In this document: positions 24,904 through 31,105 of the stretch, piece by piece | How positions within the stretch are numbered: the stretch's first letter is position 1 | How the letters are laid out: each line of letters opens with the position of its first letter | Assembly (NCBI RefSeq): GCF_988243305.1 | Contig: NZ_OZ547136.1 | DNA: 64,000 bases | Strand: one strand, 5' to 3' | Position numbers and translations under genes: made by a program | Notes under the pieces: generated by a model | The model's database searches: none | What the model was told of the DNA's origin: nothing | The model's input: only the letters and a program-made list of their open reading frames with translations

Positions 24904-25131
24904 TTAGCTGACTTGTTTCGCACCAACAGAACGGCATATTCCGCTGTAAACTTCTGTCGCACCTTCGCGATCAAGTCCGGCAGATATCACCATTCGTGTG
25001 CGGTCATTAAATTCAAAAAGTAAATCGCCACATTCTTTATTTTCGGCCAGTGAAATCACCTTCACGTTATCGAAATTAACCAGGTAAAAGCGTCCGTAAA
25101 TATCAGGAATATTAAATACCGCCATAATCAC
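24904..25131 (-). CDS. hypothetical small protein in the Mu kil position
   Basis: 75-aa ORF immediately downstream of B; positional inference only. Confidence 0.45.
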   Translation of the reverse strand: MIMAVFNIPDIYGRFYLVNFDNVKVISLAENKECGDLLFEFNDRTRMVISAGLDREGATEVYSGICRSVGAKQVS

Positions 25132-26069
25132 ACCTGTGAGAGTAATTCAGGGTTGGTATAAACCTCTTTAAAGGCCGCATTAATATGTTTTTCTGTCAGC
25201 GCCGCGCCTTCACCGCTGGCGGTGAGCCACGCCTGGTTAAGCGTATGTGTCAGAACGCGTAACGCTCCCGGCTTTTCAGCGATAGCCTGCATGACGGCCA
25301 GCTCAGCCTCACCACTGATCCCCCACGCCATGGCAATGGCCAGCACATCCGCCTTTTTGGCCTTGCGAAGTTGTTTTGTACGGGCAAGACGGCTGAACAG
25401 GCGCGATAAATCATCAAAGGCGCGGCGTCCACCTTTAAACAATCCGCGCGGGTTACCAATAAGCACCATCCCGATCCCCGTGGCGTCCTGAATTGCCCGG
25501 AGTTGCTCCAGACCGTCAATACCAAGATGATCCGCCTCATCCACAATCACCAGTCCACGCGTTCCCATCAGGCGACGGCGGATGGCGCGGGATAATGCCC
25601 CTTTGTTCGCGCGGGTGTAATCAATCCCCAGCGCATCGGCCAGCTCCAGCAGACACTCCGTGACGCTGGAGTGCGCGGGTGACAGGGTGATCATCCAGGT
25701 GTTTGGTTGCTCCTGGCAGTAATTACGGGCAGTGGCCGTTTTACCCACACCCGGTACGCCCACAATAACGTTAATACAGCCCATCAGGCGAACCGCCTGA
25801 AACAGTGCGCGCAGCTCCTGGACTGTCTGAGTTTCCACAAACTGCGGCGGTTCCGGCAGTGCGCTTTGTTTATTCCAGTTCTCATACCAGGAGCGCAGGG
25901 AAGCAGCCACAGCAGCGTTATCGCCTTTATATTTTCCCTTACGGAAAGCCGATAATGTGCCGTCGGAAATTCCCGCCTCTCTGGCGATGGCATACTGCGT
26001 CAGTACGCCGCCATCAATAAGTTCATCAATGGTCTTGATTACATCGTTAATATCGGTCATATTATTCAC
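25128..26069 (-). CDS. transposition ATPase B (MuB-like AAA+ target DNA activator)
   Basis: 313 aa, Walker A GVPGVGKT, translation resembles Mu B. Confidence 0.9.
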   Translation of the reverse strand: MNNMTDINDVIKTIDELIDGGVLTQYAIAREAGISDGTLSAFRKGKYKGDNAAVAASLRSWYENWNKQSALPEPPQFVETQTVQELRALFQAVRLMGCINVIVGVPGVGKTATARNYCQEQPNTWMITLSPAHSSVTECLLELADALGIDYTRANKGALSRAIRRRLMGTRGLVIVDEADHLGIDGLEQLRAIQDATGIGMVLIGNPRGLFKGGRRAFDDLSRLFSRLARTKQLRKAKKADVLAIAMAWGISGEAELAVMQAIAEKPGALRVLTHTLNQAWLTASGEGAALTEKHINAAFKEVYTNPELLSQV

Positions 26070-26142: not shown

Positions 26143-28233
26143 TCAGGCCAGCGGATCACTTTCTTTTAATTTCGCTTCGAGCAACTGCAATCCCCGCTGG
26201 AAATTACGCTCGTATTCTTCATCAGGTTCATCGTCAGCGACCGGTTGCTGAACGATCACCGTATTACCCACAGGGCGGTATATATTTTCCAGCCACGGCT
26301 CCTGTGGCTTGTGCTCCAGCACGTTGACAATCTCATCCTCGGCATCACGGATTTTTTCCTCTGCGCGTTTACGCATGCCTTTAAGGCGCTGCTGCTGTTT
26401 GTGGTATTCCGCGCTGACCGGGAAGGCTTCGCGTTTATTGCCGTCCCATACCGCCTCGCAAATCACGCTGCCATCCAGGCGACGTACGGTAATTCGTTCG
26501 GCATCATGAATGTCATAGCTGATAAGCACCTTACGACCATGCTCGTCACGCAGCTCGGGCGCGTAGTAAATATTATTCAGCCAGCGTATTTCACAGCGTC
26601 TTACAGGGCGCTCCACCATCGGCCGGAACATATCCCGCAGTTCAACATCGGACAGCCATTCAATTTCCGTGTCCTCTTCCGCCAGGCGTTTTTTTCTGAA
26701 CTCCGCCGGGCTGTAATGTTTACCGTTCGGCTTCATGGGTAATTCATCGTGCGGCCGGTTGTTGTACCACTCAACACCATCACGAATGGCATCAATCAGT
26801 TCAGCCCAGGACGGTGAATCACGCATCGCTGACTGCTGCCGGGCGTTCAGCCGTTTGCCCTGTTGCAGGGCAGTAAATGCCGAGCGTAAATCGCGGTTGG
26901 TTTTGCGTAACGTCTCGCGATCTGCACCTTTCCCGAAATAGGTGCGGTATTTACGGGCTATGCGCATCGGTAATGTGCGGTTAAGCCGTTCGATAATGCC
27001 TCGTCCCTGCGGATTACCGGCAATCCCGGTCGGGTGATTAATCCCCAGTCGCGGCAGTATCCCCACAACCTCCTTATCCAGGATGTCGGCGGTTTCCCCG
27101 GAGCCGTTATCCGAGTAATACAGAAACGGTTTGCCGTGATGGCGAATGCCGTGCTGTATGGCACCGGCTACGGCGAAAACATTTTCAGCCAGGTCAAGGC
27201 TCCAGCCCACCACAAAGCGCGTGCCACCGTCGATAACAAAGGTCACTTCCGGTGCAAATGGCCGACCGTGAACCGGGTGTGCGCATTTCAGCTTCATGCC
27301 GTGACCGTCACCAATCCAGACATAATTCACCGGCATTTTTGACCAGTCGCGGCGCGTGAATCCCTCAAGCTGGCGGTATTCACTGCCGGTCACCCGGCCT
27401 TTTTGTTTCACCACTTCCGGCAGTTTCTTCATTGCGCGGCGAATGGTGTCATAAGACGGCATGATATCGAGCATATAAGGCTCATCAGCGTGCCGGTGCT
27501 GCCATTCAGCGACAAAATCCTCGTAAGCCTCGGTCATTGGTCGGCCGTTTGACTGGCGATACTGCGCCAGAAATTCGGGCAGCCAGTTAATATCTTCGGC
27601 TTTTATTTCCTGGCGCTTACCCGGTGCCAGTAAAAGCAGGCGTTCAGCGGCGTTCTGCGCCTTGTTAAAGGCCGCAATCCAGCGTTTCAGCGTGATTTCA
27701 CTTAACGCGCGGCTGTTTCCCTTTTTGGCGTTCGCCGTCTCAACCATTGCCACAATGCGCTCGTCCAGCTGCGAACGTGCCAGGTTGTCAACGATAAACC
27801 GGATAGCCTTCGCACAGCTGAAACCAGGTTGTTGCGCGACTTTCAGAACTTCGCTGACGATCGCGATTCGTGCATCAGCCACCTGGCGCTGGTTTTCAGT
27901 CAGGGCATTAAGGCGTTCGACCATCAGTTGTGGTGATCCGCGATATGCCTCCACCGCATCAACCACGGCAGGCGAGCGTCTGGCCTTTGTCACCACTGGA
28001 GCCGGTGATTCATCGACTTTTTGAGTCATCAGTTGCAGGGCGTAGCGTTCACGTAATGCCTGCTGCGTCACTTCAGGTAAACAGTCGATGCTGTATTCAG
28101 TTGCTTTAGAGCCTGAGCGACGACGGGAACAACAGCTTTTCCCTTGTACGTAACGTTGTAATGCCTGGCGAATACCTTTTGTTGTAGCAGGCATTCCGGG
28201 CGCACCAATCAGTTCTTTTGCAATGACATACAT
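26143..28233 (-). CDS. DDE transposase A (MuA-like)
   Basis: 696-aa ORF between ner and B. Confidence 0.85.
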   Translation of the reverse strand: MYVIAKELIGAPGMPATTKGIRQALQRYVQGKSCCSRRRSGSKATEYSIDCLPEVTQQALRERYALQLMTQKVDESPAPVVTKARRSPAVVDAVEAYRGSPQLMVERLNALTENQRQVADARIAIVSEVLKVAQQPGFSCAKAIRFIVDNLARSQLDERIVAMVETANAKKGNSRALSEITLKRWIAAFNKAQNAAERLLLLAPGKRQEIKAEDINWLPEFLAQYRQSNGRPMTEAYEDFVAEWQHRHADEPYMLDIMPSYDTIRRAMKKLPEVVKQKGRVTGSEYRQLEGFTRRDWSKMPVNYVWIGDGHGMKLKCAHPVHGRPFAPEVTFVIDGGTRFVVGWSLDLAENVFAVAGAIQHGIRHHGKPFLYYSDNGSGETADILDKEVVGILPRLGINHPTGIAGNPQGRGIIERLNRTLPMRIARKYRTYFGKGADRETLRKTNRDLRSAFTALQQGKRLNARQQSAMRDSPSWAELIDAIRDGVEWYNNRPHDELPMKPNGKHYSPAEFRKKRLAEEDTEIEWLSDVELRDMFRPMVERPVRRCEIRWLNNIYYAPELRDEHGRKVLISYDIHDAERITVRRLDGSVICEAVWDGNKREAFPVSAEYHKQQQRLKGMRKRAEEKIRDAEDEIVNVLEHKPQEPWLENIYRPVGNTVIVQQPVADDEPDEEYERNFQRGLQLLEAKLKESDPLA

Positions 28234-28234
28234 A

Positions 28235-28483
28235 TCATGACGCCTTTCTCATATAGCTCTTAACCTGGTATCGACTGGGCCAGATTTCTTCAGGCGATAC
28301 CCCAAGAGCATCAGCAATTATTTGCTGATACGGTCGGCAAGGAGTACGTAATACGCTTTTCAGCGAATCCCTGCTGTAACCAGCCTTTAAAGATAAAGAG
28401 CGCAGTGATAAGCCAGCCATGTGTAAGCGCGCCTTGATGATTTCAGGCGGCCAATCGTGATCTGAAACTTCTCTTCTACTCAT
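28235..28483 (-). CDS. ner: Ner-like DNA-binding regulator
   Basis: 82 aa; ...SPEEIWPSRYQ matches Ner family C-terminal motif. Confidence 0.8.
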   Translation of the reverse strand: MSRREVSDHDWPPEIIKARLHMAGLSLRSLSLKAGYSRDSLKSVLRTPCRPYQQIIADALGVSPEEIWPSRYQVKSYMRKAS

Positions 28484-28650
28484 ACTTCCTCTATTCTAAA
28501 AAGTTACCCGCGCGGATATTCGTGCGGATATCTGTACGGGTAAATAATAGAACAAACAAAAGAACCAAATCAAGGTATTTTGTTCTTTTTATTCTTTGCG
28601 GTGTTTTTGTTATTAATATCAATAAGATAAATAAAAAGGAACCTGAGAGC
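28484..28650. promoter_or_regulatory. divergent promoter/operator region between ner and repressor
   Basis: Direct repeats GCGGATAT at 28512 and 28524; inverted repeat AAAAGAAC (28556-28565) / GTTCTTTT (28582-28590). Confidence 0.5.
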
Positions 28651-29235
28651 ATGAACATGAAAAACAGTTCTTTTCTCGACGAAGGAAAAGAACCAGTGAT
28701 CGAACGGATTTTTCGTCTTGCAGAGCGTTACAAATCGAGAAGTGAGGCGGCTAGAGCATGGGGAATAAACGTTCAGACATTGCAGAACTACTACAAAAGG
28801 AGAAACAATCAGCCGCCACCACAACCAAGAAAGCACCATCTCCAGAACATTGCAGAAAGAGAACATGTATCTATGGAGTGGCTGGTCAATGGTTATGGTG
28901 ATGAGCCAAGCATGAAAAAAGAACCAATTGAACAAACAAAAAGAACAAAAAAACAAAGAATTGATGATAGTGATTCCATCATCATGAGGGCGTGGGACTC
29001 GCTAACTTCATCTGAACAAGAGATTTTGTCCAACTTATTGATCAGAAAAGGGGCCGAACTACTAACCGTTTTGCTTGATACAGATATTCAAAAACTGCAC
29101 TCATTGAGCGGAGTCAAAAGAGCACTAGCATTGAGTCTACAAGAGTTACCCGATGATACTGTAAGAGAGATTTATGAAGAATGTGAAGCTAAGGTTAATC
29201 ATTTAAATGTAACCCAGAAAAAGGCTGGTGCGTAA
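28651..29235 (+). CDS. prophage repressor (Mu c position)
   Basis: 194 aa from ATG with AAGGA RBS; divergent from ner. Confidence 0.6.
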   Translation: MNMKNSSFLDEGKEPVIERIFRLAERYKSRSEAARAWGINVQTLQNYYKRRNNQPPPQPRKHHLQNIAEREHVSMEWLVNGYGDEPSMKKEPIEQTKRTKKQRIDDSDSIIMRAWDSLTSSEQEILSNLLIRKGAELLTVLLDTDIQKLHSLSGVKRALALSLQELPDDTVREIYEECEAKVNHLNVTQKKAGA

Positions 29236-29319
29236 GGGAGTGGTGCAATTTTTGTGCTGTAGTACACTCCTTTAAAGACAATCTGGAGAAAAACGTTTTA
29301 AGCCTTTTTAAGCGTCAAT

Positions 29320-31105
<1,786 letters not shown>

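Follow-up and report, generated by a model that had tools for sequence, protein, structure and literature searches.

Putative two-module switch with candidate operators between the ner and repressor genes of a Mu-like prophage resembling Sp18

In the transposable phages Mu and D108, the divergent repressor and ner-A-B genes lie ~0.9-1 kb from the c-end, multiple repressor half-sites are placed over the early promoter, and a separate repeated element for Ner is found at and after the early start, directly upstream of ner. The early and repressor promoters of Mu, Pe and Pc, are arranged face-to-face. In lambdoid phages such as lambda, 434, and P22, dyad half-sites also cover the lytic promoter, Cro shares the operators of the repressor, and the repressor DNA-binding domain is exchanged together with its operators as a block between near-identical phages. 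Moreover, auxiliary operators that act by looping are known in other systems, such as lac O2 inside lacZ, gal OI inside galE, and the flanking sites of the 186 CI repressor. The locus described here shares the Mu and D108 gene order and, with an operator centre near 28570, lies ~926 bp from the prophage end at 29496; its half-sites over the early promoter are predicted, and a repeated element proposed to serve Ner likewise lies directly upstream of ner.

The Mu-like prophages Sp18 and Phi804-3 belong to EHEC, and the element analyzed here matches them (PMC2669165, PMC7430833); Sp18 is reported not to be induced by mitomycin C. These phages and their relatives transpose in the genomes of EHEC and other STEC, where they interrupt host genes (dcyD in this case), and they also integrate into Stx phages; knowledge of their operators and immunity types would help to predict heteroimmunity, induction, and mobility. 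No operator, footprint, binding, or transcript-start study of this phage family was found in the literature, and the operator sites of this phage group have not been described previously. The control region is nevertheless of an ordinary kind and the switch proposed below is one to be expected in a phage, its description being of value chiefly for annotation and experiment design.

A Mu-like prophage inserted in dcyD

The window, i.e., the whole stretch of 64,000 nucleotides that was analyzed, contains the left part, with the c-end, of a transposable Mu-like prophage resembling Sp18/Phi804-3, and a domain search of its genes revealed MuA-like, MuB-like, and Ner domains. The window begins within the prophage, which measures ~40 kb in related records, and the far junction and the target duplication fall outside the window. 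The genes and the prophage end were placed as follows:

25128-26069, minus strand: MuB-like ATPase
26143-28233, minus strand: MuA-like transposase of 696 aa, with Mu-transpos_C and HTH_Tnp_Mu_1 domains
28235-28483, minus strand: ner, 82 aa, with a Ner/SfsB-type HTH (Pfam HTH_35, PF13693, E=2.5e-19; phrog_769)
28651-29235, plus strand: repressor gene, 194 aa, divergent from ner (phrog_3037 'transcriptional repressor', E=2e-59)
29236-29496: c-end region of the prophage, with the terminus ...CTGGTTACA at 29496, followed by host dcyD

The Ner protein is a true homologue of Mu Ner (43% identity) and the MuA homologue shares 22% identity with Mu MuA, so that, as judged from these protein sequences, the prophage is only distantly related to Mu. 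The c-end was set at 29496, as copies in other genomes match up to this position and continue beyond it into different host genes. The terminal 170 bp before the prophage end carry three copies of GTATCAAA (29325, 29377, and 29472), which are likely transposase end-binding repeats, and the terminal stretch 29325-29496 is 100% identical between the two immunity types, A and B, found among the E. coli copies. Copies of the segment running from ner through the repressor gene to the prophage end, 99% identical, were detected in 89 complete E. coli genomes, where they occupy unrelated positions on the chromosome or lie within Stx phages, and one of these matches falls inside the published interval of Phi804-3 (strain FRIK804), a relative of Sakai Sp18. 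The insertion in dcyD, which codes for D-cysteine desulfhydrase, leaves a truncated 270-aa ORF (29497-30296). It was also observed that at 29300-29312 the window lacks the 11 bp TTTTAAAGCCA present 3' of the repressor gene in other E. coli copies, these 11 bp being a single repeat unit in an imperfect tandem array of TTTTAAGC type.

Two groups of repeats and their exchange among relatives

The ner start codon (28481-28483, CAT on the plus strand) and the repressor ATG (28651-28653) are separated by a gap, 28484-28650, of exactly 167 bp, in a region of 33% G+C. An earlier note on this DNA had proposed candidate operators in this gap based on two repeats, and the inverted one was confirmed at its coordinates, with AAAAGAAC at 28558-65 and GTTCTTTT at 28582-89, separated by 16 bp. 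This repeat exceeds local chance, as the gap holds two exact AAAAGAAC copies on either strand versus a mean of 0.02 in 1000 dinucleotide-preserving shuffles of the 167 bp, none of which reached two; in the whole window, 7 of the 10 AAAAGAAC copies lie inside 28212-28946. The direct repeat was also present, with GCGGATAT copies at 28512-19 and 28524-31, but these copies are more accurately regarded as the inner arms of a longer palindrome of 40 bp, P1, whose 19+19-nt inverted repeat (28504-22/28525-43) is complementary at 15 of 19 positions, a value equalled by 7 of 2000 local shuffles. By itself, the GCGGATAT count was not remarkable window-wide (7 copies vs 2.3 expected, with 1 of 100 shuffles reaching 7). 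The shuffles, together with the conservation described below, exclude chance as the origin of the repeats in the gap, whose features are the following:

28486-28503, minus strand: ner leader with the Shine-Dalgarno AGAGGAA and CTAAAAAG, read from the sequence
28504-28543, no strand: P1, a 40-bp imperfect palindrome (TTACCCGCGCGGATATTCG tg CGGATATCTGTACGGGTAA), an inverted repeat that holds both GCGGATAT copies
28544-28573, minus strand: candidate early promoter Pe, with the -10 TATTAT at 28549-28544, an 18-nt spacer, and the -35 TTGATT at 28573-28568
28546-28566, plus strand: candidate left-hand half-sites AATAGAAC (28546-53, one mismatch) and AAAAGAACC (28558-66), in the spacer and -10 of Pe
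28574-28598, minus strand: candidate right-hand half-sites GGTATTTT (28574-81, = AAAATACC), GTTCTTTT (28582-89), and the weaker ATTCTTTG (28591-98), upstream of the Pe -35
28614-28633, plus strand: candidate repressor promoter Pc, of low confidence, with the -10 TAATAT at 28614-19 followed by the conserved block CAATAAGATAAATA
28633-28643, plus strand: Shine-Dalgarno region of the repressor gene, AAAAAGGAACC, which contains AAAGGAAC, a half-site copy with one mismatch

The reading that we favor, with a probability of about 0.65, is that this gap would constitute the genetic switch of the transposable prophage and would be composed of two modules, one formed by P1 and Ner, and the other by the repressor and its half-sites (P2), which would be exchanged as a cassette.

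The comparison set comprised ~45 related loci from E. coli prophages, Pseudomonas phage VW-6B, IMG/VR contigs, metagenome contigs, and genomes of Mixta, Erwinia, Izhakiella, Cedecea, Buttiauxella, Symbiopectobacterium, and Pantoea, at least nine of them contributed by a scan of genome contigs. A collection scan with GGATAACNGNNNGGTTAT gave mostly chance matches and longer anchors were used instead, the ner leader serving as the anchor in the scans of viral and metagenome collections for P1. One positional layout was common to all ~45 loci, from Enterobacterales to phage VW-6B. Reading from ner, it consists of the ATG, the Shine-Dalgarno, CTAAAAAG (invariant or nearly so across all relatives), the P1 palindrome, a minus-strand -10, the left half-site, a 7-nt core with the minus-strand -35, T-rich right half-sites, an A/T hexamer followed by (T)CAATNRGATAA, the repressor Shine-Dalgarno, a second palindrome termed P3, and a conserved coding start, GKEPVIERI.

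The division into two modules was traced through three independent mosaics, in which ner and P1 are nearly identical while the repressor and P2 are exchanged, with the junction at ~28547 as placed by sequence comparison. In the first one, the window (type A) and L003/L005-L007 (type B) encode identical Ner proteins and have 100% identical DNA up to ~28545, diverge from 28550 to ~29325, where the repressors share 46% identity, and are again 100% identical beyond; in type B the inverted pair is replaced by AAAATACC/GGTATTTT. Similarly, L021/L030 and L025/L026 have nearly identical Ner proteins and identical P1 sequences and break at the same P1-P2 junction, the DNA-binding half of the repressor having been swapped and its C-terminal ~60 residues kept. 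In the third mosaic, one identical P1 (TTATCCGCGCGGATAACTGCGCGGGTATCCGTATGGATAA) is paired with at least four repressor/P2 types. P1 was ~100% identical across the immunity swaps and, on this evidence from alignments, it is part of the ner-transposase module, whereas the AAAAGAAC cluster is part of the cassette with the repressor. The candidate operators of the earlier note therefore gained comparative support as a group, except that the GCGGATAT pair segregates with ner and not with the repressor. These natural mosaics offer a testable map of site-regulator pairing, and they resemble the lambdoid cassettes, in which the DNA-binding domain and operators also move together between near-identical phages.

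The candidate early promoter and the P1 palindrome

Pe was the sole intergenic match in the window in a scan with a sigma-70-like consensus, and we infer from this match and its position that it is the candidate early promoter. Its start is predicted near 28537, within P1, which would then span ~+1 to +35 of the transcript. A minus-strand promoter of at least 8/12 matches with its -10 adjoining the P1 end (offset 0 or 1) was present in 14 of 18 family loci, and the equivalent promoter of the Mixta prophage L025 carries a perfect TTGACA -35. The bases of the Pe -35 are also part of AATCAAGGTATTT (28567-79), which by eye differs at one position from WATCAANNNNTTR in a comparison with the IHF consensus, from which VW-6B departs.

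In the case of the repressor promoter, no match was found in the window at the scan threshold, and TAATAT at 28614-19, which has a poor -35, was assigned as its putative -10 with low confidence. In L025, L020, L029, L003, L024, L031, and L022, a plus-strand promoter of at least 8/12 matches was located whose -10 falls between +58 and +77 relative to the P1 end, a position homologous to 28614-19 in the window. Pe and the putative Pc would thereby be arranged back-to-back, differently from those of Mu. A convergent repressor promoter of the Mu kind, in P1 or to its left, was also considered and rejected, as no plus-strand candidate was found there in the window or in most relatives; near the P1 end, plus-strand matches of 8-9/12 occurred in L007 and L024 only.

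P1 was represented by 17 unique versions in the family, with the consensus TTACCCGCGCGGATAACCG-CG-CGGTTATCTCTACGGATAA, in which the blocks TTA, GGATAAC, GGTTATC, and GATAA were conserved and mutually symmetric while the 4-6-nt spacers between them varied. It can be decomposed into four half-sites of GATAA/GATAT type in alternating orientation, ~11-12 bp apart. Most relatives have GGATAAC/GGTTATC where the window has the GCGGATAT pair, and GGATAT...GGATAT was seen in the E. coli lineage and L010 only, which indicates that the direct repeat arose secondarily from dyad symmetry: in the E. coli lineage GATAAC became GATAT in one arm and GTTATC became ATATC in the other, a symmetric change that produced a near-palindromic GATATC core and thereby the appearance of a direct repeat. 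The complete palindrome occurred only beside ner, in all 27 of the ner-adjacent viral matches listed and in all 14 of the ner-adjacent metagenome matches, whereas the scan matches without ner were non-palindromic chance matches.

The most likely partner of P1, based on its position and conservation, is Ner, for which it would act as operator. Module 1 would travel with ner and the transposase gene, with P1 placed directly downstream of Pe, and Ner bound to P1 would block or throttle early ner-A-B transcription from ~+1 to +35. In the Mu record, the annotated Ner-binding region similarly lies in front of ner, at the start of the early promoter's transcript and downstream of it. The Mu region 990-1100 contains no GGATAAC/GTTATCC-type motif, P1 is unlike the Mu Ner site, and the site sequences of the two regions are unrelated, a difference in Ner-site specificity that is expected given the 43% protein identity. 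Moreover, Ner would differ from the Cro proteins of lambdoid phages, since it would have its own operator outside the exchanged cassette instead of sharing those of the repressor.

The mosaics by themselves cannot tell Ner from the transposase as the partner of P1, as the junction leaves the two genes together on one side, and P1 was co-inherited with the transposase gene in all of them. It has thus to be considered that P1 is the transposition enhancer, or another site for the N-terminal domain of the MuA-like transposase, in which case the enhancer function, which in Mu resides in the repressor operators, would here have been transferred to an element of its own. The transposase N-terminus retains the Mu DNA-binding domain (PF02316, E=7e-6), and the Mu enhancer is located at a distance from the c-end similar to that of this region, ~0.95 kb. 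In addition, the repressor DNA-binding domain is unrelated to that of the transposase, which makes immunity-specific sites improbable as an enhancer. On the other hand, the conservation of P1 far exceeds that of the transposase N-terminus (42-72% identity), and P1 follows Ner more closely, the Spearman coefficient of P1 divergence being -0.83 against Ner identity and -0.63 against that of the first 80 transposase residues, with phylogeny confounding both values. Its position at +1 to +35 of Pe and in front of ner is that of the Mu Ner site, and four GATAA-type half-sites spaced by 11-12 bp suit a small HTH protein. An enhancer in place of a Ner operator is consequently unlikely, although the two roles are not mutually exclusive.

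Even less likely, by about half, is that P1 functions as an RNA hairpin in the transcript leader, affecting stability, attenuation, or ner translation, rather than as protein-binding DNA. The minus-strand leader 28540-28481 folds at -15.2 kcal/mol, a weak signal against shuffles (z = -2.07), and the changes in the P1 arms are symmetric between relatives. However, the conservation is blockwise, with unpaired and variable spacers, and the positions that depart from Watson-Crick pairing would be G-U in 19 cases in the minus-strand (early) RNA versus 43 in the plus-strand RNA, for which a promoter was not found. An Rfam scan of 28200-29500 gave as its best match the trpB-motif at chance level (E=0.34, 26.7 bits vs a gathering score of 59).

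Two other likenesses noted by eye, that of some P1 variants to a DnaA box and that of GCGGATAAC to lacO, were judged coincidental. Near the start of the putative repressor promoter, the conserved (T)CAATNRGATAA block (28620-28633) resembles an outer P1 half-site (GGATAAAT or GGGTAAAT), and it may be an additional binding site through which Ner acts on the promoter of the repressor gene.

The repressor, its candidate half-sites and their distal copies

The repressor was divided into an HTH domain of five helices (residues 16-80), a disordered linker (88-104), and a helical C-terminal domain (105-192). In its AF2 model (mean pLDDT 73), helices 16-24, 30-37, 41-48, 61-71, and 75-80 were predicted at pLDDT ~80, and a Foldseek search with the N-terminal domain retrieved 434 Cro, P22 c2, SinR, and DdrO as top matches (target TM-score ~0.7, E ~1e-2), supporting with moderate confidence a five-helix Cro/cI fold for the modelled DNA-binding domain. 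This predicted fold is shared with lambdoid phages and differs from the MuA-I-alpha-like winged helix of Mu c. By BLASTP, no significant similarity of the repressor was found to Mu c (E=0.19) or to the N-terminus of the MuA-like protein of the window (E=0.73); it gave no PF02316 match, its profile retrieved nothing significant among PDB sequences, and the NCBIfam matches, to DicA and SfsB, were weak. Since the repressor has no homology with either Mu c or the N-terminus of the transposase, the identity of operator and enhancer known from Mu is not transferable, and the overlap that the earlier note had drawn from Mu cannot be assumed for this prophage, where the sequence comparisons do not support it. 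The C-terminal residues 109-178 (28975-29185) were colinear with residues 103-174 of Mu c in a weak hhalign match (E=0.0026, probability 12%), which hints at a chimeric repressor with a Cro/cI-type DNA-binding domain and a Mu-c-like oligomerisation domain. This C-terminal domain is all-helical and not LexA/S24-like, which fits the reported absence of mitomycin C induction of Sp18.

The candidate repressor sites overlap the early promoter computed for the window, with AAAAGAAC and GTTCTTTT bracketing the Pe -35, and their best reading, which draws on position and co-segregation, is that P2 would be an immunity-specific repressor operator occluding this promoter. The repeats were kept in phages with the same type of repressor, as the earlier note would lead one to expect. 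In STEC2018-607, whose repressor is 90% identical, two CGGATAT copies and AAAAGAAC/GTTCTTT were retained, and more distant repressors with a TL.NYYKR[RK] helix had the inverted AAAAGAAC/GTTCTTTT pair, or variants with one mismatch, around the early-promoter -35. In the different NYYKR[RK]-type loci, AAAAGAAC and GTTCTTTT were separated by 9, 10, 16, 18, or 21 bp, without a fixed dyad spacing, which is a difference from lambdoid operators; at the family-typical N7 position, the partner in the window is GGTATTTT and not GTTCTTTT. T-rich repeats with a 9-bp period occupied the right-hand position in all relatives.

The left position was of AAAAGAAC type in loci whose repressor has Asn-46, and of AAAA(AT/AC)AC type in Ser-46 loci except L022. 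Residue 46 lies in the third helix of the AF2 model (41-48), the predicted recognition helix. The comparison of Asn/Ser-46 with AAAAG/AAAAA half-sites covered more than 25 loci that represent few independent lineages, and the half-sites of L196/L219 were less clear. A simple rule based on Tyr/Phe-48 was contradicted by L031 and L032, and Asn/Ser-46 was adopted instead. This rule is a small and directly checkable recognition code and, if true, an N46S substitution would shift the repressor specificity towards AAAAATACC.

In the switch that we favor, module 2 would be an immunity cassette covering ~28547-29325. The HTH domains of the repressor would occupy the half-sites at 28546-66 (plus strand) and 28574-98 (minus strand), over the -35, spacer, and -10 of Pe, occluding RNA polymerase at this promoter and maintaining lysogeny. 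A flexible linker would tether these domains to the helical oligomerisation domain, and such flexible tethering would account for the variable half-site spacing among relatives. Placed just upstream of the weak putative repressor promoter (-10 near 28614), the right-hand sites could mediate its autoregulation.

Besides the gap, half-site copies were found in the repressor gene:

28667-28694, 5' end of the repressor gene: P3 remnant, with GTTCTTTT at 28667-74 and AAAAGAACC at 28686-94
28917-28946, plus strand: AAAAGAAC twice (28917-24 and 28939-46), where the repressor gene encodes the linker

In the family, P3 has the form AAAAGAACC-N4-GGTTCTTTT followed by another AAAAGAACC, a palindrome conserved irrespective of immunity type, with arms at ~+108/+122/+141 from the P1 end (the latter two at fixed positions in most relatives), of which the window retains the last two only. 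It is coding (M.KEP.GSF...KEP) in some phages and part of the 5' UTR in type B, L029, L031, and L032, and its presence in other immunity types indicates that not every AAAAGAAC-type copy is immunity-specific.

Of the 17 NYYKR[RK]-type loci, 12 contain an exact AAAAGAAC between +348 and +395, counted from the P1 end; none of the ~20 loci of other types does. These intragenic copies were read in all three phases (KKEP, KRTK/KRTQ, and KKNT/QKNK), which suggests maintenance at the DNA level, and they are possibly a distal operator that may act as a looping site. The looping role is assigned by analogy with lac, gal, and 186, where auxiliary sites also lie away from the main operator; here, an exact half-site lies ~350-395 bp downstream, in the coding region, and the difference from those systems is its presence in 12/17 loci of the repressor type. 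A more far-reaching interpretation, tentative and rather improbable though less so than an enhancer in place of the Ner operator, is that the control logic has been rewired relative to Mu, with a Cro/cI-type cassette repressor, a separate immunity-independent enhancer (P1 or P3), and looping over ~350 bp; flexibly spaced half-sites would then be combined with a distal half-site in the DNA that encodes the repressor's own disordered linker.

The abundance of AAAAGAAC in a region of such low G+C content also raised the question of incidental copies, produced by A/T-rich low-complexity DNA and Lys-Glu codons (AAA GAA) instead of binding sites. Indeed, the copies at 28686 and 28212 fall in codons for conserved peptides, KEP and AKEL respectively, and the intragenic ones fall within the Lys/Glu-rich linker. 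Nonetheless, the two intergenic copies are non-coding and stand above the local shuffles (0/1000), the sites turn into AAAATACC/GGTATTTT when the repressor type changes, and the intragenic copy occurs in all three reading phases, so that this explanation is the least probable of those considered. For the favored switch, the half-sites are accordingly read as candidate binding sites. It was further observed that the copy at 28212-28219, on the minus strand and within the first transposase codons, lies 346 bp to the left of the main operator, a distance close to that of the intragenic copies on the right, and that it was also found in L028.
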